Positions 3,401 to 32,274 of a stretch of 37,389 nucleotides of DNA are shown one piece after another; the stretch's first letter is position 1; the number at the start of each line of letters is the position of its first letter. The notes under the pieces are model-generated. The model saw only the letters and a list, made by a program, of their open reading frames with translations. It did no database searches and was not told the DNA's origin. A program made the position numbers and the translations under genes. Source of the DNA: Phoronis australis (lineage: Eukaryota; Animalia; Phoronida); contig NMRA01000807.1 in the NCBI GenBank assembly GCA_002633005.1, positions 100,183 through 137,571 of the forward strand, given 5' to 3'.

Positions 3401-3582
3401 ATGTTCACAAAAAGCCCAAACACACATCCATCTTGGACGGCTCGTGGTCAAGGACGGTACGGAAACTACCGATGAGTTACGGATGGACGGCGTTATCGAC
3501 ATCGTGACTTTACGCGACAAACTGGCAGTTTCGTACCTCGAGACGTCCAAGATGGAAGTGTGTTTGGGCTTTTTGTGAACAT
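3401..3582. mobile_element. foldback MITE with 39-bp inverted repeats
   Basis: ATGTTCACAAAAAGCCCAAACACACATCCATCTTGGACG matches the reverse complement of 3544-3582 with one mismatch. Further imperfect pairing inside (GGTACGGAAACT / AGTTTCGTACC). Confidence 0.85.
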
Positions 3583-3631: not shown

Positions 3632-3794
3632 GGGACCTCAGTAGCTCAGTGGTGAGAGCAGTAGACCGGCAATCTAGAGACCTATGGTTCGATTCCCAGT
3701 TGGAGTTCCGGATTTTTCTGTGTTTAGTTGATATACTTCATTACTGCCCAACCTCAGCAGGAAACTTAAAATGGATCTATTCTTACTAATTACT
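3632..3794 (+). mobile_element. tRNA-derived SINE-like element
   Basis: A box TAGCTCAGTGG (3642-3652), B box GGTTCGATTCC (3686-3696) and a TAGA/TCTA anticodon-arm remnant. The 3' 32 bp recur at 20543-20574. Confidence 0.75.
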
Positions 3795-5699
3795 GAAGAC
3801 TATATCCAAGCAACACCCAACTGCAACTGCGAATGCGTCGATGAGAGAAGTTCTAGACATTGTAGACAAGCCATGACGACAGAGCGTCTGTCAAGGGAGT
3901 TTCCGTCGTTCAACTCCGCGCCATCTTCCTGCAACACACCTTTAAGGGGGGTGTATAGACTGGTCAAATCTCCAAGTTCCTATCTACAATAAGTATAAAG
4001 GGGGTTTTAACTAGTTAGACATGACTCTGAAAGTGACAAAAATCGAAAAGAAAAACGTTTTTATTGTACATCGTTTTTTTTTAAATATCGTATTTTAATT
4101 TTCAAAAAATCCAATTTTACCTTGATTTTTTTCAAAATGCACAGGGATTATCATCAACTGTTTCCTTACACAATATTCTACTTATCCATACCAAATATAT
4201 GTACAAAATCATCATGATCTTGATACAAAATCATTATGATCTTGATTTTGTGTCATTTTTGCGTGTGAGTTGTGGCAAGCATGCCACTTTCTGTCATTTG
4301 GTCACTTTCCGTCTATTAACTAACAATCAAAAAACCCTGGCACGCCATTTTACTTCAGTTCTAGGCGATTTCAAATTTGAAAATTTCGTAAAAATTGACC
4401 CACGTGTTGCGGAAAAATAGGCCCGAGAATCTTGTCACTACCCTGAAATTACGAGCCGAGAAAAACGGCTTTGTAGGTATGCCTCCCAAAAACAACCTAT
4501 TTTGTATCAAATTAGATCGAGTAGTTCTACTCGATAACGGCACGTTCGGTTGTGTTACCTGACACCTAACGGCAGCCAAAGGTGTTGAAATTATCCAATG
4601 ACGTCATTGGTTTTAAACGCAGTCTGTTCAGCAGTTCACAACACGGGTTACTGATGTTAGCTTATCGCTTGAATTCATCGTCTAACACTGATAAATCGTC
4701 AAACTTAGATTAAAAAAACCTTAAAAACACACCGAGTTCATATAAAAACGTGTTGTTTTATTTCGCTGTTAGGGATTTATTGGTATTTGGACACACCGTA
4801 GCCTACAAAGTTCGGTAGGCCAATTTACCAAGGTCCGTAGCAGGAGTTTGGGGTCTGTTCGGAGATAAATTCGAGGTATTCTTCCGTGAAATACAGACAG
4901 GAGAACCTAGATCTGTGTTGTTTAGACTTGTAATTTTTTTAGTTCTAAACTCACAAAACGCTTGTTATCCCGGCCAATGGCTCGGAACCAGATCAGGCTC
5001 GTCGCGGCAGGACTGAAGACATCACGAACATAAAGCAGCCAAAGTTGGAAACTAAACTTCCAATCAAGAAAATACTATACTAGTGAGCCAAAGAAGTAAT
5101 GTGCAAGTGATTATATTGGTGAATTAGCCACGAAACTGCAAATCTACTTACTCGTCGGAGGCCACGAATTTATGGTTCTCCTTTGGCCACAGAACCGTCA
5201 GGGCAGAAGTTGACAATCATTATTTGAATAATGTATAGGTAAATAAAGATTCCTCTAACACCTGGCCGTGGGATAGAAAATCGAGCTATTGTTTCACAAC
5301 AGTTTCTGTCAGCAAACACTGAATTAGCATGCGCTTACACAGTCTCGGTGTCCGGTCAGTTAGTTTTATTGCACCGCCGGTAAAGCAGTGATTTGTTCAT
5401 TGCTGGCTTCTCAAATCATGTGCACTCGCGATCACTCCAAAGGCATTACAAATTGCATCTAATGAGACAGACTTTGTTTCAGTTTTATATAAGTATTGGT
5501 TAGAGTGAGAATAATTCATTTTGAAACAGAACACTCAGTAATAAACGTCAACATGGCAACTCGCAATCCCGAATTAGACGAGAGCTCATGCGACGAAGAC
5601 TTCGCAGGTCGATAGTTAAGTTTCACAGGCTATCAGGAATACATTGATGATTTAATACTAGAGAGGCGCCGTGAACAAGCTCAGGCGACGGAACGTATG

Positions 5700-6046
5700 A
5701 ATAGTTATTCGGTAACCCGGCATTCGTCAGACGCACTGTCGACGACTGCAGGCCACAGACACGGAGATGGTTCACGGCCTCATACTTGCTATTTACGGCG
5801 TACTTTTCATTCTTCACTACCGCGAGCCAATTCCTAATCATTTCGGACTCTAGAGGAAGTCGAAAAAACGTTATACCCGCCTCCCGTGAGATTACGAGAG
5901 ATATTGCCGTGTATTTTAAATGAGAACACGTGGTGTTGACTAGATTTTAGCTAGGTCCTAGTGTAGGTCCTAGCGTCTACTGAACGCATGCCCGCTTTCC
6001 TCGCAGATGCATAATTCGGACAAACGGAAACGATGCACTGCAACAT
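5700..6046 (-). pseudogene. THAP zinc-finger domain fossil (transposase N-terminus), interrupted by an insertion
   Basis: Removing 5881-5990 plus one CCCGC gives one frame: MLQCIVSVCPNYASARKAGITFFRLPLESEMIRNWLAVVKNEKYAVNSKYEAVNHLRVCGLQSSTVRLTNAGLP. This fits the THAP pattern C-x4-C...F-x-x-P...W...RVC-x-x-(H>Q)...RL-x3-(AVP-like). Confidence 0.8.
5881..5990. mobile_element. 110-bp insertion flanked by 5-bp direct repeat CCCGC
   Basis: CCCGC at 5876-5880 and 5991-5995. Excision restores the THAP reading frame. Confidence 0.65.
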
Positions 6047-13881: not shown

Positions 13882-14179
13882 CAGTGGCGGATCTAGGATA
13901 TCATAAGAGGGGGCCAACAATTTTTCTCGGCCAAACGCACAAAGTACGATTGCATGTGCGTGTCTCGAATTTCCGTGGATGTGGACCATCTAGTAAAACA
14001 CAGTCGGAGGATTAAAAAAAAAACGGGTGAACAATTGTTCCGGCTGTCTCAATCGGACACTTGCAATGCGGTTCTGCCCCCCCCCCCCTCGGCCGCATGT
14101 TACTTACCGACGTTAATTAGTGAACTCAATATTTCCTCACGCTCTTTCTGCCCCCCTCCGCCCCTTAGATCCGCCTATG
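13882..14179 (+). mobile_element. complete MITE, CAGTGGCGGATCTAG-TIR family (copy 2, hAT-like termini)
   Basis: Runs CAGTGGCGGATCTAGG...CTTAGATCCGCCTATG. Flanks TGTGAC/AGTGAC suggest a 6-bp TSD with one mismatch. Confidence 0.8.
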
Positions 14180-16119
14180 AGTGACTGCAGCAGACTACTG
14201 CTTTCAAAACTATTAAAACAGCTAATTACACCCATACAGTTCGGTCTAATAAAAAATAATTATTTTAGCAAACATTTGATTTATACAAGGAGTAGTAAAG
14301 CCACAACTGTAACTCACGAGTTGTGTCTTAAATCTGGAAATTAAGGTTGACAGCAAAGTCAAAAATGTGAGCAATGGATGATTTATAAATATACGTATGT
14401 CAAGTACTTGTACCGGAAATTTTGTAATGGTCGTGATTAGTCACACGGAAGGAAGATTAAACGTGTTTAATGTAGTTGAAATCATTCTGTCTGTACTGAT
14501 TACTATGTCTCGTCATGCGTGCAGAATGGAGTAAACTACGCTGTTTGTATGCCCTCATACACGGACGTATTTGTCAGGGTTTGTCTAACTATTGGTTGAA
14601 TCCGACGAGGAAAGCAGGTGTCGTTAATTGACTTACTTCAAGTAATATTGGTGGTACGGGTAAACAGTTGCAGCTAATCTACTGATGAAAGTCATTTGTA
14701 ATTTTTTCTCTTGGAGATATTCTGACTGACAGATTCCATGTAAGACTGAAACGCAAAAAACGAAGATAAACGATTCTGAAATTTCCAGATGCGATAATTT
14801 AAAGTACCGTCCCCATGCCGTGGACGAGAAGCATGTGTCATTAAGGGAATATTCCAGGCTTTTGCGAATTCAAGTGTTCATCCTGTTATGGGTTTGCGTT
14901 GTTACTGAACTTGAATTAAATAACTCCATCTTGAAAGACCGCGACGGCAATCTAATTAATAGCCAGTATTTATTCACAATGCAGCTGCGCACTGACCTTT
15001 TTTCCTAGCCTCGTTTCAACCTCCAGCGTGCAGTTTATTGGCTTCCTTACTGGTACTCGGACAGTGAGACTGTACAATTACCGTGCGAACATCAACATGA
15101 TACTACGATTATTATGATGAGGGGACGTTGGGAGAGCCAGCCTTCGTTGCTAAGTTACTCGACGTCATTTCTATGACCAGCTTGCAGTGATACTAGTCCA
15201 TTTTTCCCTGCTGCCATGTTGTGTTTGTTTCTAATTCTGCACAAAGCATAATTTCATCATCTGTCACTTTTAAATGGCAAAAACTTAAATTTATGTCGGG
15301 AATTTAGCCAGATATCTAAGAACTACAGAATTAAACTGAGTAAAAGTACATATATTTTTGAAAGTAGAATGTCTTTAGATTTTTTTTTACGTGACACCAA
15401 TCTGTCATTAATTGGGTAACGTGACCGTATCTTTTACTGAAATGTAGCAAAAAAGAAACGTAAGGTACATTGTTAGCAAAACAACGATAACAATAACATA
15501 ACCAAAATTCGTTTGACTCGAATGTCTGATGAAATCTCAAAAGCGTAAATTATCATAAGGCAACTTATGATTTTTTTTCTAAAATTCATAGAATTTCTGA
15601 CGTCATGCAAAAATGGAAGTGTTTGATCCCTTTCGGTTTTGACCATTCTCGAGATATTCAAGATTTTCCGATGACTGTTCTTTTATTGATTGACTTTTCA
15701 TACAGCAGTCTCGGCGTACTTTACAGAAAATGCGTATGTAAATGGGTCTCCCAAAATGCTACAAAAGGTTTTAGGGACGTTGTCATCTCCGACTTACTGT
15801 TCTGGAATTATTTGACATTTACCAATGACTAGCAATGGTACGTTTCTCGGGGTTCAGGGTGTTTGTTTGCACGAACACTACTCGTCGCAGTTTTCGACCA
15901 TTGACAGCAAAATTTGTGCACTAGTATGTTATCGCGCGCTTCGCTTGCAATACATGGTAATATCTCGCGAAATATTGCGCGTTCTTGCATTTTTGCGAGA
16001 TTCTCGACTCTACGGAACGCACGCCTGGTTGCAAGCGTATCCTAGCAAAATGGCGGCCACTGAAGTGATTTGTCAGTGAGTTTGATGTCAGAGATTGACT
16101 GTAGGTTTGTTTAAAAGGT

Positions 16120-16290
16120 CAGTGGCGGATCTACGTTTTCAGCAAGGGGGGGGTTAGGATTCCCGCCAAGGTCGAATCCTAGGCGCGTGGCGCCGAGCTG
16201 GGGGAGGTCGGGAGGGGGGTTTCCCCTCCCGTGTAAGAATTTTTTTTGTTTTTGTAGCCAAATAGTGAAATTTCCATGCATCCTTATAAG
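16120..16290 (+). mobile_element. MITE fragment, CAGTGGCGGATCTA-TIR family (copy 3)
   Basis: Starts CAGTGGCGGATCTAC and has the internal G-rich hairpin shared with copy 1. Right end not found. Confidence 0.75.
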
Positions 16291-17364
16291 TTTCTGGCAC
16301 TTAACATGTCTCTGGAGTTTTTCTTAAGATAATTAAAAACCCTTCTCGATTTCGTCACATGAACTTGGCACATAAGTTTCGTGAAACCATATTGTGCACA
16401 TCTGGGTATGAGTCACGCCACCAGCAAAAAATTTTGTTGGAACATCTGCTTACACACCTTTTTAGCATACGATAAGTCGTATACGAAAAGTGTGGTGTGT
16501 ATACAGGGGTTTAGACAAATTCCACATATTCAAGAGCATAATTAAGGAGCACCGACGGGGCGTAAAAACTTGAATATCAGATGATCGCGTAACAGCAGCC
16601 TCAAGTTGTTTAAGAACGAAGACATGTACTGTTAGTCCGGAATTAANCGGTCAATTCACATCGGAAAAAATCCAGGCACTCAAAAATTTTACCAAAAACA
16701 CCAAATTTGACAGTTTTCTCCCCAAAATTGACACTTCCCTGCAAGTGCTAGGAAAAATCCGACTACAGATTCAGAATGATCGCACACTCTAAGTTCTAAA
16801 ATTGTGGTCACAGTATGCCCCTTACTAGCTACTTTTTTGGCAATTTTGATCTGTCTGACAGCCACCTGAAAAAGTCACCCGGTTTCTCGGACAGCAGGCG
16901 ACAGGGTTTGAAAGCAAATGACAGCCACCATTTTGCACCAAAAGTAGGTCACGGCTAAAAAAAATTGGCTTTTCTCATTGAAAAACACAAGTAAATCAGT
17001 TTCCTGGCATTTGTTTTCAACAAATTTCTCGAACAATCAGCCAAACCTGACATACGCCCTGTACATAAATTCTAGCGACTAGAAAATGCCCCCAACCCCC
17101 CTTGTGGCTGCAGCCTAACCGTCCAGTGCTACCTAACCCTTTCCCTTGCCAAGGTCCTCTCTAGAATCTTCCACGAGATGGCTCTGTTGTGCACTTTCCT
17201 GTGTACACTCTAGCAAGTCTTTTAGCTTCAACTACTATAGTTCATCTCAATATCCTCTTAATTTGAGCCCTTGTTATAACATTCTACTTATTTAGCGATC
17301 ACCCTGGCCAACCCGCGATCGAGAACGCCCGGAAGGCGATCGAGAACGAGACCTTACACCAAAA

Positions 17365-18453
17365 ATGGCAGACGACAGTCACGTACCCGGTGAGTTTAAG
17401 TGTCATTTTCTGCTTAAATAGAGGCTACTTTGGTACGAATGTTACACACAGAAAAGCGTCAGGGTGTAACCTTTGTTGTGGTTCTGAAATACTACTTGGC
17501 TTTTGCTTTTTTCAAATAAAGAGCTCAGAAAGCAATGACTTTCGGTAAAATGCCTTGCGCCTCGTAAAATCGACAAATTCTACATGTTATTAGCAATTCC
17601 AGGGTTCTTAAGGAGAGACGTGTGACGTTTATAGTTTAGTCGTCCCTGGTGACACCTTTGTTAGTTATGATTTGTGAAACAATTTGTGAGATATTTACCA
17701 ATACAAGCAGGTCCTTGTGTGAGACGGCGATCGGGAACGATGTCGTTAATTCTCTATGGCGATCGTGAACGCAAAAAAGGCGATCGTGAACGTACATTTT
17801 TTTCTCTGCATTGGCCTGAATAGTCGTTCAAGTTACGGTATTATGTCAATAATTTTAGAATAATGCGGAGCCTGAATTAGTTGATGGGTTGATTATTGAT
17901 TACATTTCGTCATTATTTCTAAGTGAGATTTAGTCTAACAAACATAACGGAATGCGTTTGATTTTTTTCAGTTGAACTCTTAATGTAGCCACGCGATGAG
18001 TCCTTCAGGGTGTTAACGTCCACGCCTTCAAAAAAGAGTAGTACAACTGCTGCATGTTACAACAGAGTGTGTGTGTGTTGTGGTGCCTTGTTCAGGAACT
18101 AAGAAATCGACTTAATTTGACCACATGGCAATAAAATACAGTGACACTACAACAAAGCAAGACCTTTACCAGCCCTGTGATTGACGCGTTGCATGCGTCA
18201 AGAGGTTTTTTACCAATATAGTAAAACACAGCATGAAGCATCGTGCTCAGGAAGCAAGTCGATTCAGTGTCCTATCTGTGATCCATGTTTCACAGAAAGA
18301 GTGTAGCCTGATGCGACACTGCGTCACAGCACGAGGACACTCCTTTTTGTGGTGAATGTGACATGTCATGCAAACAGTATGTCTCCTTCTGCAGGCATAG
18401 CAAGCAGAAACGCCATGAATGAAATCATTAAGTACAGTGCTGAAGGTTATTAA
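17365..18453 (+). pseudogene. element gene A: two exons, CxCCG motif plus RING-HC finger remnant
   Basis: Exon 1 is 17365-17389 (MADDSHVP, donor GTGAGT, phase 1), with acceptor TTTTTTTCAG ending at 17971. The spliced frame contains RVCVCCGALF (about 18064-18093) and KSIQCPIC (18256-18279). Adjacent frames give VTARGHSF, FCGEC and FCR (about 18323-18395). Several stops and frameshifts. Confidence 0.65.
17727..17792 (+). repeat. cluster of three internal 13-bp GCGATCGNGAACG boxes (left)
   Basis: Copies at 17727, 17759 and 17780. The same box occurs twice in the left TIR (17315, 17336). Confidence 0.9.
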
Positions 18454-19074
18454 GTCACTATAGTTTATTCAGATTTACAAAGTCTGTGGTTGGTAGTGGT
18501 CTGATGTGATAGTATTTTGACCTTTTGTTTTGAACCTTTTTTCCTCAAGTTTCTTTCAAAATTTGTATTATTTCAATAGGATCTTTAACAGAACCAGTAC
18601 ATTTTTATAGTGTTTAGGTAGATTGGGCAATACTTACACACAATTGCTCTGACCAATGAGTATTTTGAATGAAAATATACGTCTATGATTATTGTAGAAA
18701 TTGCTTTCATATTGCAGTTGATTTCCTGTGAGAGACTGTTATACTATCAATCAGCCCTAAATACATTGTCTATGATTCAGTGATGATTTAGTCATTCCAA
18801 AAGCAATTCGTTGGAAATGTTCAATGGATTTGTTTTTTTGATTTCCCTATAAATAAATTTATATATTTTTGTAAGACCAATTTTGAGGTATGTGTGTTAA
18901 AAGGTTAATATTATAATAGAAATGCTATAATATTGTTGGTTTCCTGTGTAAATGACTACAGTGTGTAGTTGAAGTGACGTTAATAACAACATGTTGACTA
19001 CGTTTTGAGAAAATCACAATATAGTATGTGTAATATAACTCTCAATCTTTTTCAATGTCACAGTAAACTCGAGA

Positions 19075-20284
19075 TCATGACCTGATGATGCAGGTGAACT
19101 TAGGACCAATACTACAAAACAAAAGAGTCAAACACAACGTACATTCAAGCCACACAGTGCCACAAGTCAATCTGTTCATCTCTGTATCGATGTTATCAGT
19201 AAAACATGAAGTAAAATCCCACTCGTTTATCAGCACACCAATTTACACAACTTCTGGCCAATTTTTTGATCCCAGACGTTTATGAGTGAGAATCATCTGG
19301 TGAAGTCTTGCCGCACTCCCCTCTCTCCCCATGGGCAAGGTCATCATCATTCTTTGACTTCACTCGCTAGTTGCTTTTTTTCCTTTTGCTGTCACAATTT
19401 TTTAATAAGATTTTACACTCGCTTTCATCTCGGTGCTGCAACAATTTGTTTACCCCTGGCTGACAGGCCACGTGGAGCAACTCCTGAGTGAGTCTTCAGT
19501 TTAGAAACCCTTGTTCTCAGTGGTTTGGTCTAAAAGTAGATGCCTGGCCTGTACTTTTCAAAACACTGGTCAGGTGTACCTTCACGTCGTGGGTAACATG
19601 TTCGACGAAGCTCGCCAGTGAACTTGTTTCCTGTAATGAGAAGATAAATTCGTTTGTGAAACTAAACTTGAATTACGCTTGATGTACATGTAGTGCTCAT
19701 GGCAATTTAATGGAAATATGCTATGTTGTTGTTCAGTTTTGATACGAAAGTAACACAGTAACGACACAAAATGTGATTAAATCATTGCACCACACTTATT
19801 GTGTAACCTTTTTCACGCTTTATAAGTAAAAAGTTCATTACTGTTCAACACACCACAATGCGTTCCTGATCGCATAAACAAACACAAGTTTGCGTTCCCG
19901 ATCGCTTATCGTTGCGTTCTCGATCGCATCTTTCAACAGAAAATCGTCGAAAAATCAGAGATCCTGACAAAACTACAAAAAGCAGGCGTGGCGTTATATT
20001 TTCACACCTCATTTCTTCATAAATCCGTGGTCAATTTATTGATTTAGTGCCAAAAATAACGGCAATTTGCCAAAATGACATTCAAATCACCTTCGGCTTA
20101 AGCGATGCCTCGGTCAACGTAACTTTTCTCCTATAATTGGGAGAGACACTAGCCTAAACCTCTACGTGCCCTTCCTAAATGTGTTACGCATTGAAGTCAT
20201 GTCTCTGTTTTCACAGTGGAAGTAAAAAAACAACGAAAATTCATCAAATTTACTCACCTTGCCTGACTTCGCTTCTCGCGCCAA
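19075..20284 (-). pseudogene. element gene B: two exons, basic region plus C-terminal PHD-like remnant
   Basis: Exon 1 is 20284-20258 ((L/M)AREAKSGK, donor AAG|GTGAGT), with acceptor CTCATTACAG before 19630. The terminal frame 19224-19075 reads EWDFTSCFTDNIDTEMNRLTCGTVWLECTLCLTLLFCSIGPKFTCIIRS*. Stops and a frameshift lie upstream. Confidence 0.55.
19861..19927 (-). repeat. cluster of three internal 13-bp boxes (right, inverted)
   Basis: CGTTCCTGATCGC at 19861, CGTTCCCGATCGC at 19893 and CGTTCTCGATCGC at 19915. TIR copies at 20289 and 20310. Confidence 0.9.
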
Positions 20285-20542
20285 ATTTCGTTCTCGATCG
20301 CTTTCCGGTCGTTCTCGATCGCGGGTTGGCCGGGGTGGCGATTGGATAATAAAAACCACATGATCTTATCTGATCATATCATTGGTTGTTACAATTTGCT
20401 CTCAGGAATTTCTAAAATCTCCAGAGTGCTTTGACCCCAGAACCAATGTTGCAAACACCATCTAAAAATAGATTTTGACGTTAAAATACATGCCAACAAG
20501 TTTGACCCCGTGATTTAAAAGTACATAACACAAATTTTGAGC

Positions 20543-20574
20543 AACTTAAAATGGATCTATTTTTACTAATTACT
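20543..20574 (+). repeat. 32-bp segment shared with the 3' end of the SINE-like element
   Basis: AACTTAAAATGGATCTATTYTTACTAATTACT, one mismatch to 3763-3794. Confidence 0.8.
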
Positions 20575-21479
20575 TAATCAATATTTATTCTGACAGTTGG
20601 AATGTTGAATTATGGCATAGAGTTCACTATTTCCGTTACATAAGCGAACATTTTTTGCCGCAGGCTCAGTGAGGGGACCACTATAACATGGTATATAATC
20701 TTTCTCTTACATTTGCTAGTTTAGTGCAACATTCAAGGGGTTTACTGTCACGAACACTTTTCAGAATAAATTTCGGAACACGTAAAATGTCTTGCTCAAA
20801 ATATTTATTTATAAACACAGACCTTCCGCGAGTTGCGCTGCGTAGATCCAAAGCCATAAGCCATGTACTTGCAGCTGTTTCATTGGGTGTACTTTTGTTG
20901 TGTATGTTCACGCAGTAAAAAACAAAAAAACGCTAAGTATTCATAGTCTTGAGATCACGCCTTCGCTTTAAAAGATGAGCCAGTCACATTGTATTTGGCT
21001 CGATGATTATTAGAGGCCACGTAAGTTTCCAGGGATGGAAGGAAAGGATCCCCGTCATTGTGTTTAATATGCAAGCCGGGTGTAAAGACGCCTAAAGTGA
21101 TATCAAACCTTGTTTTGGAGATTTCAATTAGATGGTTCTTTCATCTACTGTTACACAGTTAGTATCTTGCAGTAAGTATCTCGAATGTTCCTTGATTTTT
21201 GCCTCCTGAGAAGGAGGCTTGGTTTTGTATTTGTGTACATCAAGTATTTTGATTGATTGACATTTTCTGCTCAGTCACAGGTGCGTGGCTTTAGACCTTG
21301 CGGCTGACTTTCGTGGTCATGGACTGGTCTTAAGAAGAGTGGGACTGAAATTAAGTGGTTCAATAACAGAACTATTCATTTGGCCAAGTTTTCGACACAG
21401 CACATGAATGTGTGACATGCGCAGTTTTCGTCTGCCTCTGTAACCCACTTTTGATTTTATTCGTCATTTTACAACTAAG

Positions 21480-26800: not shown

Positions 26801-27386
26801 ACGCACGTGACAGAATGATCAGGTAGTTTTATTGAATTGATTTACTTTCAATATATAATTATTGATCTGGCGTCATTACCCATATACTGTGAAATGCTGC
26901 CTAAGATAAAAAAGCCCATAGATTAGAAAAACCAATTTGCAAAATAGTTGCCATAAATGAGCAAAAAGTTGGATGGGTTTCTATCACACAGGTATTCTTG
27001 CAGTCAAACTATGTTTCTGACTGAAAAAGACCACAAAATGTGACAGGCGATTTGTATTACGATATAATACAACGAGCGCCCTATGAGATATGTCGCAATC
27101 ATTTCATTTTGCAACACACCGTGATTCCGATAGGTTATGCTACAACTGACACACTGCTACATTTACCATTTACTGAAATTCAAAACGCTCACTGATGACT
27201 GTCTTTTCAAGGAAGACTATGGGACAACTTTCCAAATTATTTGAGTTAAGCTAAACTGAAAAGCCAAGGCTATCAACCCATTTTATTTAGACTGCTTATT
27301 GTCATAAAACTGGTATTAACTTGTTCTTTGCTCAGATGAGGAATGATTTCCGCGCTAGGGAAGAACTGGCATTTTGTCATTGTTCG

Positions 27387-27719
27387 GCACATAAAATGAC
27401 TCACTGAGACAAGCAACTTACTGAGTCCTCAGCGCCTAAAATGACTCACCGTGACAAGCAATTTACTGAGACCTCAGCGCATAAAATGCCCATGACTCTC
27501 TGTGACAAGCAATCTACTGAGACCTCAGCGCATAAAATGCCCATGACTCTCTGTGACAAGCAATCTACTGAGACCTCAGCGCATAAAATGCCCATGACTC
27601 TCTGTGACAAGCAATCTACTGAGACCTCAGCCCATAAAATGACTCACTGTGACAAGCAGCTTACTGAATACTCAGCGCATAAAAAGACTCACTGTGACAA
27701 GCAACTTTCTGAGACCTCA
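27387..27719 (+). repeat. minisatellite of seven units (45,45,51,51,51,45,45 bp)
   Basis: Unit GCGCATAAAATG(CCCATG)ACTCWCTGTGACAAGCAAYYTACTGAGACCTCA. It gives the ORF 27441-27770. Confidence 0.95.
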
Positions 27720-28885: not shown

Positions 28886-30262
28886 TAGGAGGCACTTTTC
28901 CTTTGTTTTCAAGTAGCTCGATTTCATGGTTCCTCATTCCGCGAGACCAGTCATTGAAGATTTTATCTTTGACCTTAAGGAGTTGATTGTGTTAACGAGT
29001 CATGACATAGACTGTCATTTGTTTCCGCCGTTTCTGGCCGGAAGTCGTAAGGGCGCACTTCTGTTTGCGTGTATACCCATTAAAGCAGTGTGTCAACAGG
29101 TGTCGTAAGTGTCTGAAGTCTGCACATGCGCAGATAATGTTCACTCTCGGGAGAAAATTTGAGGCTACGAAAATATCCGAGTTGTTTGAAAAGTTCCATG
29201 CCCTGCTCTCCTCCTCCCTCTCTTTCTCGGTTTGCCTAAACGTTTCAAGTGGTGGCAAAGGTATTCATTGTAGATCTATTGACATGGGGAGCCTTGTTAC
29301 GGGCCAAAGAAGAGAAATAAAGATAGGAAACCAACCACTTTATAATTGTCGCCCACGGTACAGAACCTTGCACTAATCCTGTATAGGGAAGGAACATATT
29401 GGTCTTACATAGCATTTTTTATACTATAGTTATCTCATATCATGCAACTAGTGGTTGAGTAAAGTTATAATTGAACCAAAACAGCCGCAAGATAAACCTT
29501 AACGTTACATGTACAAAGACATGACGAATCCTGGAGAGTTATCACTTTAACATTTTCCCAAGAGTTATTAATTTGACGAAGACCATTTGTGAACTCATTG
29601 TCGGAATTAGGGGAGGAGGGCTAGAGATCCTGGTCCCTCCAAAGGACGTGACTAAAAACGAAGAAAGCGCCGCTGACAAGGCGTTTTTGGGATTTAAGCG
29701 GTCCTGTTTTCTTCATAAGTTTTGGGTGGGCCCACCTTATGGCGGGGGTGTTTAGTTTATACTGACCTTGGAACGGGTTTAGCGATTTTTGTAACATATT
29801 ATAGAGTACCGCGGTCTATTTATAGCCATGTAGTCAGTATTCTACTAATCGCGATACTGAATGGAATTCAGTAGGTGCGTCTACCGAGCATGCGCAATCT
29901 AACTAAAATCTGGAAATTGCGTCATGCACACTTTAATGGCTAATGGCCTTAGTAACAAAAATAGCCCAAGCAAGTAATATGGGTCGCGTGGCGCCTTCTC
30001 ACATTAGACTTGCTTTCGACTGCTATTGAACATTACTTTCATACGGCCGTACAACTTAACCAACGGACTACACATGTGAAATAACTGCCGTCCCATGCTA
30101 CTTTGATTTCAATTCTGCCTTGACAGGCATTCTGCCACTCTGTTGACTGTCCGATGTTCAAGTTTTTGTTCTAGTTCTTATGAGGCGGGAAGAAACTTAA
30201 CCTGTCCTTGAGTTCCGCGAAAACATTTTTGTTGGCGCCGTTGTGCATGCATCAGTGATAAA

Positions 30263-30264
<2 letters not shown>

Positions 30265-30324
<60 letters not shown>

Positions 30325-30370
30325 CCACCATCATCATCATCATCATCATCATCATTATAATCATCATCAT
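30265..30370. repeat. (CAT)n microsatellite
   Basis: Long TCA/CAT trinucleotide run with a few CAC/TAT interruptions. Confidence 0.95.
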
Positions 30371-30674
30371 TATTATATGATCTTTACAATCATTATTGTT
30401 TATGTATTATTTAGTTTATCCTTCGTTTAATTATTGCCTCATCAGATGTTTTTCAGTTTTTACTGGTCGTTTTGTTTTTTGCTCAGTTGTACAATTACCA
30501 AATTCAAATTACAGTACCCAAACGCAAGTACCTACACTGCACACGAGTACTGAGGATGCATACACGTATTGGCCTCGTCTCATGTCCCAATGCGTTATAA
30601 AATACCATCGATTTTATCATACAGCTCCCCGACACAACTTTGTTTTAATTACCTCAATGTATCTCATCCAACAG

Positions 30675-31573: not shown

Positions 31574-31640
31574 TTTAAAAATTAATAGTTCACTTTGTAA
31601 AAAATCCAATCCAATACTTTTTGTTGCTGACAGCGTACAT

Positions 31641-31802
31641 TGTACTTGCTTACAGTGCGTGTACTTGGTTACAGTACGTGTACTTGCTTACAGTGCGTGT
31701 ACTTGCTTACAGTACGTGTACTTGCTTACAGTACGTGTACTTGCTCACAGTACGTGTACTTGCTTACATTACGTGTACTTGCTTACATTACGTGTACTTG
31801 CT
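31641..31802. repeat. 19-bp minisatellite, about 8.5 units
   Basis: Unit TGTACTTGCTTACAGTACG. Confidence 0.95.
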
Positions 31803-32274
31803 AATTGTCCTGCTCTTGGCGGACTATCTCACTTTTTGAAAATTTTCCCGCCATCACGCCACACCACCAAAATGTCTCGCTTTTTGACACACGGCGATAC
31901 TGACATATACTGGCATATACTAGTGCAATTTCCTACAGGACGTAGCACTATTTTGTTGTTCGACTAAAAAGAAAAAAAACGGGACGTTTCATGGGTTTTT
32001 GAGCCACTTGCAATTGCCCATTCCACTCAAAAAAACAAAAGACGCTGTAGAGCCGGTTTTGTCTTTTGCTGCGAACATTTCACCCTAGCATTTTGTCTTA
32101 GNAGAGTGATACACCATCGGGAATGATAAGGGGCTGTCTAATGATATGACTCTTAAGCAATTCGGTTGAACAATGCCGCATTGAAAAAATTTTAGCGACA
32201 GTAATTTCCATAGCAATAACCAACACCGAAACAAACGAATGTAATCAAATCCCAACCTCAGCAGCACGAGATCG

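Follow-up and report, generated by a model that had tools for sequence, protein, structure and literature searches.

A 3.0-kb non-autonomous element with Transib-like ends and two decayed, convergent genes in Phoronis australis

An element of 3,038 bp occupies positions 17300 to 20337 of a 37,389-nucleotide stretch of DNA from the phoronid Phoronis australis (assembly GCA_002633005.1, contig NMRA01000807.1, forward-strand positions 100,183 to 137,571; hereafter the window, whose numbering is used throughout). The evidence presented here shows a mobile family with CAC ends and a 5-bp target site duplication (TSD), whose copies carry two short, convergently transcribed genes that are decayed in the copy studied. 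The explanation we favor, and hold to be about equally apt to be right or wrong, is an old, many-copy, 3.0-kb non-autonomous family of Transib type that carries two accessory genes of its own, each driven from one end. An initial annotation, made from the sequence, had proposed a Transib/RAG-related non-autonomous family that retains a RING gene and a PHD gene, or else a family with a pair of accessory genes of its own. The CAC ends, the 5-bp TSD, and the fit to Transib hold, while the kinship with RAG through RING and PHD does not; the alternative survives as an option once the RING and PHD identities are dropped.

The element was compared with four public DNA contig runs (X1 to X4, all from one sample of one study), three raw RNA runs from one study (X5 to X7, about 18 to 19% of each of which was used), and an RNA contig set from a second study (X8). 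Coordinates of the features are collected in Table 1. Published papers are cited from the excerpts of their text that were available.

The ends of the element are 50-bp terminal inverted repeats (TIRs) in which 47 of the 50 bases pair, the longest among 39 inverted pairs within the window, and they start with CACCCTG on the left and CACCCCG on the right. Contigs have loose ends at exactly these borders, at 17300 (n = 24 in X1, agreement 0.40) and at 20337 (n = 26 in X1 and 24 in X2, agreement 0.39); these figures are for the listed positions, beyond which there are 2,323 further loose ends. Many differing flanks meet at the same two ends, and the element therefore belongs to a mobile family. 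The pentamer GCGAT lies directly outside both termini; five bases at two set places would match by chance with a probability of 0.0012. Empty sites were observed as two joints that each skip 3043 (3038 + 5) bases, one from 17294 to 20338 ("both" = 5) in 1, 2, 2, and 0 contigs of X1 to X4, and one from 17296 to 20340 in 3, 2, 3, and 0 contigs of the same runs. The second joint was also present in 27, 22, and 21 RNA reads of X5, X6, and X7 and in one X8 contig. Because the empty sites are 3038 + 5 bases shorter and hold a single copy of the pentamer, the 5-bp TSD is proven at the GCGAT site, and both the TIRs and the perfect TSD of the initial annotation were borne out.

The empty sites are probably paralogues of a high-copy host repeat, with alleles as the alternative, because the flanks of the element themselves belong to such a repeat. 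This repeat is separate from the element, which inserted into it. It ends at 20595 on the right; on the left it extends from 17294 to 16900 or beyond, and no left end was found. A 35-bp piece of it recurs at 3763 to 3797.

All interior bins of the element are covered by contigs, at a depth 56- to 330-fold that of the flank at 20699 to 20800. These ratios were calculated from the X1 to X4 bins, and summing the depth of contigs does not yield a true copy number; they suggest that copies sharing this interior number in the order of a hundred. When the 3108 X1 contigs were sorted by identity, 469 fell at 99% or above, 699 at 95 to 99%, 1059 at 90 to 95%, and 881 below 90%. The majority (1,940 of 3,108) are thus less than 95% identical, so the family is old. 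Frame-breaking indels are common to sizeable fractions of the copies: a 1-base indel at 18154 accounts for 237 of a depth of 708 in X1, another at 19225 for 171 of 440 in X1, and a 4-base indel at 19430 for 55 of 428 in X1 and 25 of 55 RNA reads in X5. At least one group of copies was therefore frameshifted and still multiplied, which makes the genes passengers in the later spread of the family and dispensable in cis.

Spliced RNA reads in X5 and X7 support both junctions predicted by the initial annotation, and both GTGAGT donors and both acceptors are present in the sequence. The left junction, 17389/17972 (GT..AG; aligned as 17388 to 17971), was crossed by 2, 0, and 3 reads in X5, X6, and X7. 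A joint from 17393 to 17984 (1, 0, and 11 reads) is, by our reading, the same junction in copies without the six bases at 17978, which are missing from about half of the X1 depth (191 of 368). The right junction, 20258/19630 (aligned as 19616 to 20257), was crossed by 3, 0, and 4 reads, which carry 10 bases absent here; the 20258 donor is also used by an X8 contig with another acceptor, and the alignment of a further X8 contig starts exactly at 19630. RNA first mates were on the minus strand over 17992 to 18521 and on the plus strand over 19158 to 19581, the same sides as the spliced reads. The flip in strand bias and the spliced reads on both strands therefore reveal convergent transcription of the family, as expected of two tail-to-tail genes. 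Each gene has the short first exon and the decayed second exon that had been proposed, with the difference that right exon 1 reads TTG here and has no ATG.

Two further signals were seen in the introns. In one X8 contig the 20258 donor is followed by 19972, and 19898 by 19526, which marks a possible alternative exon at 19898 to 19972 (minus strand) in the right intron. Antisense-biased reads over the left intron (17356 to 17673) in X5 and X6, not in X7, probably come from read-through of a family copy inside a host transcript.

Protein motifs were scored by frameshift-tolerant alignment, with 60 shuffles and 134 real window tiles as controls; the RING, PHD, and C2H2 patterns were the general ones of these domains. 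The two RAG1 N-terminal motifs, H-x3-L-x3-C-R-x-C-G and D-x3-I-h-P-x2-F-C-x2-C, are those of PMC1131882. In decay controls, RING or PHD domains were planted in 25 trials per decay level (10, 20, and 30%).

For the left gene, two tandem C2H2 fingers matched 11 of 12 key positions with a score of 38, which none of the 60 shuffles and none of the 134 tiles reached. The RING claimed for this gene matched 6 of 9 positions, a result equaled by 5 of 60 shuffles and 6 of 134 tiles, and was rejected mainly because the same residues are better explained as C2H2. Planted RINGs scored as low in 4, 14, and 20 of 25 trials at the three decay levels. The CRxCG zinc domain reported earlier did not stand either: the gene has CVCCG only, and RAG1 motifs 1 and 2 together scored 5.5 of 56, which 16 of 60 shuffles reached. 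Sequence comparison with PDB gave eight weak matches (E 0.15 to 5.4), six of them named zinc-finger or HIC2 and a seventh aligned through repeated fingers, and HMMER against 1.84 billion proteins gave two matches, one a C2H2 array (E 4e-4). A small hidden Markov model built from the fingers of protein P0002 ranked the finger at 18268 at the top of 1488 tile-frames, but with an E of 0.07, and the region of the finger at 18348 (the third) had three weak PDB matches, one a matrin-type zinc finger. A search of PDB with the second left frame returned five matches, all irrelevant, and a word-based protein search at near lengths returned no candidates, a method that is weak for decayed queries. We consider the left gene likely to be a C2H2 array, coding for a small protein with two or three fingers.

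The right gene fared no better as a PHD gene. The PHD pattern scored at chance level, equaled by 27 of 60 shuffles and 59 of 134 tiles, and planted PHDs fell to this level in none of 25 trials at 10% decay, in 6 at 20%, and in 4 at 30%; the PHD assigned to this gene is disfavored on its sequence. Word-based protein searches, weak for decayed queries, gave 0 of 4 at near lengths and 0 of 76 among longer proteins, and three comparisons with PDB by sequence returned 0, 0, and 2 matches, the two being irrelevant antibodies. No kelch match was obtained from Pfam, PDB, or the protein databases, and since the exon is about 580 bp long, it would be short of six kelch blades. Stop-free stretches in the element reach 82 codons at most, a Pfam run on 6 whole frames and 10 fragments gave nothing above cut-off, and Pfam, PDB, and protein-database searches of the exon 2 frames gave no match to RAG1, RAG2, or a DDE core, so that the initial annotation was correct in finding no catalytic core. 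Both would appear to be small whole genes that end in the AT-rich spacer, not halves of a deleted transposase.

These results bear directly on the RAG reading of the initial annotation, taken here as an internal-deletion derivative of a RAG1L/RAG2L transposon that kept its non-core modules. CACnnnG ends, a 5-bp TSD, and tail-to-tail genes are found in RAG-like (RAGL) elements as well, PflRAG2L-A has a 9-codon 5' exon near its 3' TIR (PMC10462144), non-autonomous RAGL elements of 0.7 to 2.6 kb exist (PMC7204232), and a RING or PHD at 20 to 30% decay could escape the motif test. Against this view stand the chance-level RAG1 and PHD scores, the assignment of the RING residues to C2H2 fingers, and the missing matches to RAG1, RAG2, and kelch. 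In addition, at 10% decay, the level suggested by the intact fingers, none of 25 PHDs and only 4 of 25 RINGs scored so low, and the RAGL TIR consensus has AAA at positions 8 to 10 (TR2; PMC7204232), where both ends of the present element have GCC. We regard a RAGL derivative as very improbable.

A set of X7 reads touches the same question. In 38 reads (agreement 0.91, median 106 loose bases), left exon 1 is joined at 17393 to sequence from outside the element, whose hand translation from 30 letters reads ...H-H-Q-V-I-R. This fits the H-x3-L start of RAG1 motif 1, with I for L, and would favor the RAGL derivation; by eye it is also like the start of the family's exon 2. The joined sequence possibly belongs to a sister element, a partner element, or a host exon under the control of an element's end, and an origin from a diverged sister copy or from a host exon has the same likelihood as a RAG1 motif 1 start. 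These reads are the best lead toward a partner element.

A feature absent from the list of the initial annotation is an array of short repeats. Ten copies of the 13-mer GCGATCGNGAACG, counted with at most two mismatches, all lie within the element, when 0.38 are expected in the window. Their offsets are 15, 36, 427, 459, and 480 from the left end and 15, 36, 410, 432, and 464 from the right end; the two sets mirror each other and all copies point inward, and the spacings within clusters are 21, 21, 32, 21, 22, and 32 bases, or about two or three helical turns. Such phased repeats may be protein-binding sites. Scans for paired 13-mers gave no matches in viral contigs and none in prokaryote genomes. 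A TIR scan of metagenome contigs gave four matches, which we attribute to chance, as they lie in contigs with a GC content of 0.59 to 0.65 and the likeness is confined to 22 to 24 bases. We also considered a long TIR, in which both ends would stem from duplication of a single 600-bp unit, and rejected this, there being no detectable homology outside the 13-mer clusters (z 1.2 to 1.8).

Base composition separates the ends from the second exons, with a CpG observed/expected ratio of 1.3 to 1.7 in the outer 600 to 700 bp and about 0.6 in both exons 2. The contrast suits a Pack-TIR, in which two host exons, one of them C2H2, were captured and are reached by splicing from the promoters and donors at the ends, without ever having served transposition. 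C2H2 arrays are common host genes, the database matches are to host-type proteins, and Pack-TIRs occur in animals, some of them multicopy and transcribed (PMC8277862). No parental protein was found, however, by HMMER for the left gene or by word searches of public proteins for both genes, and capture would have to happen twice in mirror image, each time downstream of comparable exon and intron sequence whose 13-mer cluster sits about equally deep. We judge the capture of both exons to be unlikely, and retain two genes belonging to the family itself as the preferred explanation.

The ends carry most of the weight in classification. Both read CACnnnG. According to PMC8289069, CAC and a G as the seventh base are important for ProtoRAG, and the majority of Transib TIRs show symmetry. 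A 5-bp TSD is a hallmark of Transib, which prefers GC-rich targets (PMC1131882), and the GCGAT duplication has G or C at 3 of 5 positions. Transib is the best fit for the ends, in a probable assignment to superfamily that draws on the ends and one TSD and has hAT5 as its alternative.

The same anatomy could instead have been moved by hAT5 or by an undescribed lineage of the CMCT clade (EnSpm/Chapaev-like), with the 13-mers as subterminal binding sites. Subterminal repeats in clusters are usual in hAT and CACTA elements; against hAT, its ends usually follow YARNG, not CAC. As to TSDs and termini, TSDs of 5 bp are made by hAT5, those of the CMCT clade range from 2 to 5 bp with CA..TG ends (PMC12730594), and EnSpm and Chapaev have CAC..GTG ends (PMC12730594, PMC4079192). 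A mover outside Transib would also agree with the missing nonamer and the lack of a visible GC-rich flank bias described below. The TSDs of Chapaev (3 to 4 bp; PMC4079192) and of fungal EnSpm families (3 bp; PMC12730594) do not match the 5 bp proven here, and the assignment to Chapaev fails on TSD length. We think a mover outside Transib unlikely.

Several observations weigh against an old Transib-type family with accessory genes of its own. The A-rich nonamer of the Transib consensus, 23 bp after the heptamer (PMC1131882), is absent from both TIRs, as is any nonamer like that of the recombination signal sequence (RSS). The nonamer is not strictly defining for Transib, since the TIRs of Hztransib bear little if any resemblance to that of the RSS (PMC8289069). 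The majority letters beyond the right end are AT-rich, with G or C at 5 of 25 positions in five consensus strings (agreement 0.39 to 0.52), a weak point against a GC-preferring transposase. No autonomous partner was seen among the joints and loose ends listed. The RNA support comes almost wholly from other copies of the family, with 8 of 1,353, 1 of 1,049, and 4 of 802 reads in X5, X6, and X7 being 99% alike to the copy studied, which is itself only a candidate for expression. Captured host exons are still a candidate origin for both exons 2, and every motif pattern was drawn up with the sequence already known. Finally, the second HMMER match of the left gene, P0001 (E 1e-6), is a VWD repeat protein whose score is summed over seven stretches; we set it aside as probably spurious.

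Taken together, these results suggest a scheme in which a transposase or helper supplied in trans would bind the TIRs and the 13-mers and pair the two ends. Cutting would take place at CAC and insertion with a 5-base stagger, as the ends and empty sites indicate. Each CpG-rich end would double as a promoter, directed inward and followed by a short first exon whose splicing was observed, and the accessory genes would have decayed while the family kept spreading. A bolder and rather doubtful extension is an undescribed lineage of the Transib clade with a RAG-style layout and a different cargo, in which the C2H2 protein reads the helically phased 13-mers of its own element as an end-binding or self-regulating subunit for an external transposase; the X7 transcript would then come from a better-preserved relative and may start with a RAG1/Chapa-like H-x3-L.

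In the cited literature, as excerpted, the second gene known on a Transib-type element belongs to the RAG1L/RAG2L pair, and a search that covered mostly titles and the openings of abstracts turned up no case of a convergent C2H2 gene pair on an element of Transib type. The family may already be cataloged in Repbase or Dfam. If the favored explanation is true, a different convergent pair in a CAC-ended family with 5-bp TSDs would mean that this layout is not unique to the ancestors of RAG, and would advise caution in naming elements RAG-like solely by their termini and the direction of their genes. Should the C2H2 protein bind the 13-mer, the family would provide a simple case of end recognition separated from catalysis.

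Table 1. Features of the element and of its insertion site (positions in the window).
Feature	Position	Strand	Evidence
Left TSD, GCGAT	17295..17299		one copy only in empty sites
Left TIR, 50 bp, starts CACCCTG; 13-mers at offsets 15 and 36	17300..17349	+	inverted pair; loose ends at 17300
Left exon 1: ATG, 8 codons + 1 base	17365..17389	+	sequence; spliced reads
Left intron, 582 bp, GTGAGT...CAG, CpG observed/expected 1.3	17390..17971	+	sequence; 2/0/3 spliced reads
Inner cluster of three 13-mers GCGATCGNGAACG (17727, 17759, 17780; spacings 32, 21)	17727..17792	+	
Left exon 2, decayed (stops, frameshifts); CVCCG near 18070-18084; end approximate	17972..18453	+	sense RNA depth 17992-18521
Possible first C2H2-like finger, degenerate, without either Cys	18171..18240	+	by eye; adds 3 score points, weak
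C2H2-like finger CPIC..F..L..H...H across two 1-base frameshifts	18268..18332	+	
C2H2-like finger CGEC...F..H.....H, intact in one frame	18348..18416	+	
AT-rich spacer (GC 0.29) between the genes, likely shared 3' ends	18460..19050		composition; RNA strand switch
Right exon 2, decayed, contains Cys, His, and Trp; lower coordinate approximate	19050..19630	-	
Right intron, 627 bp, GTGAGT...CAG, CpG observed/expected 1.27	19631..20257	-	sequence; 3/0/4 spliced reads
Inner cluster of three 13-mers (starts 19927, 19905, 19873; spacings 22, 32)	19861..19927	-	
Right exon 1: 9 codons if, as presumed, TTG is a lost ATG	20258..20284	-	donor used in both RNA studies
Right TIR, 50 bp, starts CACCCCG; 13-mers at offsets 15 and 36	20288..20337	-	inverted pair; loose ends at 20337
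Right TSD, GCGAT	20338..20342		sequence; empty sites
Host repeat, right part	20343..20595		depth; 40-55 contigs with loose ends at 20595 per run; empty-site joints

Elsewhere in the window, a THAP-domain-like fragment at 5626 to 5946 (minus strand; Pfam E 0.0022, below cut-off) is possibly a transposon remnant. An Rfam tRNA match of 42.2 bits at 3635 to 3707, which ARAGORN did not call, is possibly a tRNA-derived repeat, and a 48-bp inverted repeat at 3401 to 3582 adjoins it. Three related pieces with CAGTGGCGGATCTA ends (860 to 1022, 13882 to 13928, and 16119 to 16253) are likely a small family of miniature inverted-repeat transposable elements. Tandem arrays were found at 27339 to 27719 (45/51-bp units), 31603 to 31830 (19-bp units), and 30256 to 30373 (a TCA microsatellite).

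Compared with known systems, the element resembles a non-autonomous Transib in its workings and a RAGL transposon in its layout. It shares with non-autonomous Transib elements the CAC..GTG ends, the CACnnnG heptamer, symmetric TIRs, the 5-bp TSD, insertion into another repeat, and the absence of a transposase, and it differs from them in its lack of a nonamer, its ten subterminal 13-mers, and its two spliced, convergent genes; in canonical Transib elements, according to the excerpt of PMC4411706, the transposase is the sole gene encoded. MULEs, by comparison, have TSDs of 8 to 11 bp in place of 5 bp here, as well as, in MuDR, convergent transcription driven from the ends; Pack-MULEs and other Pack-TIRs resemble the present element as non-autonomous TIR elements with a transcribed, gene-like cargo, and differ in that no parent gene was found here. 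With hAT5 the element has in common the 5-bp TSD and, as in hAT elements in general, subterminal repeats, whereas its CAC ends depart from the hAT consensus and no remnant of a hAT transposase was seen. Chapaev and Chapaev3 also have CAC..GTG ends, and the CxxCG near the start of left exon 2 is reminiscent of them, but the TSD is 5 bp and not 3 to 4, RAG1/Chapa-type motifs 1 and 2 are at chance, and there is no RING. In layout the element is like the RAGL elements (ProtoRAG, TransibSU, RAGL-A/B), with their tail-to-tail gene pair between CAC TIRs and 5-bp TSD and, in the available account of PflRAG2L-A, a short 5' coding exon near the TIR. The present element fails as a RAGL element on the RAG1 core, the RING, the N-terminal (Chapa) motifs, kelch, and the TIRs, which are symmetric and lack AAA at positions 8 to 10; no PHD is demonstrable in it, and its left gene is likely a C2H2 array.

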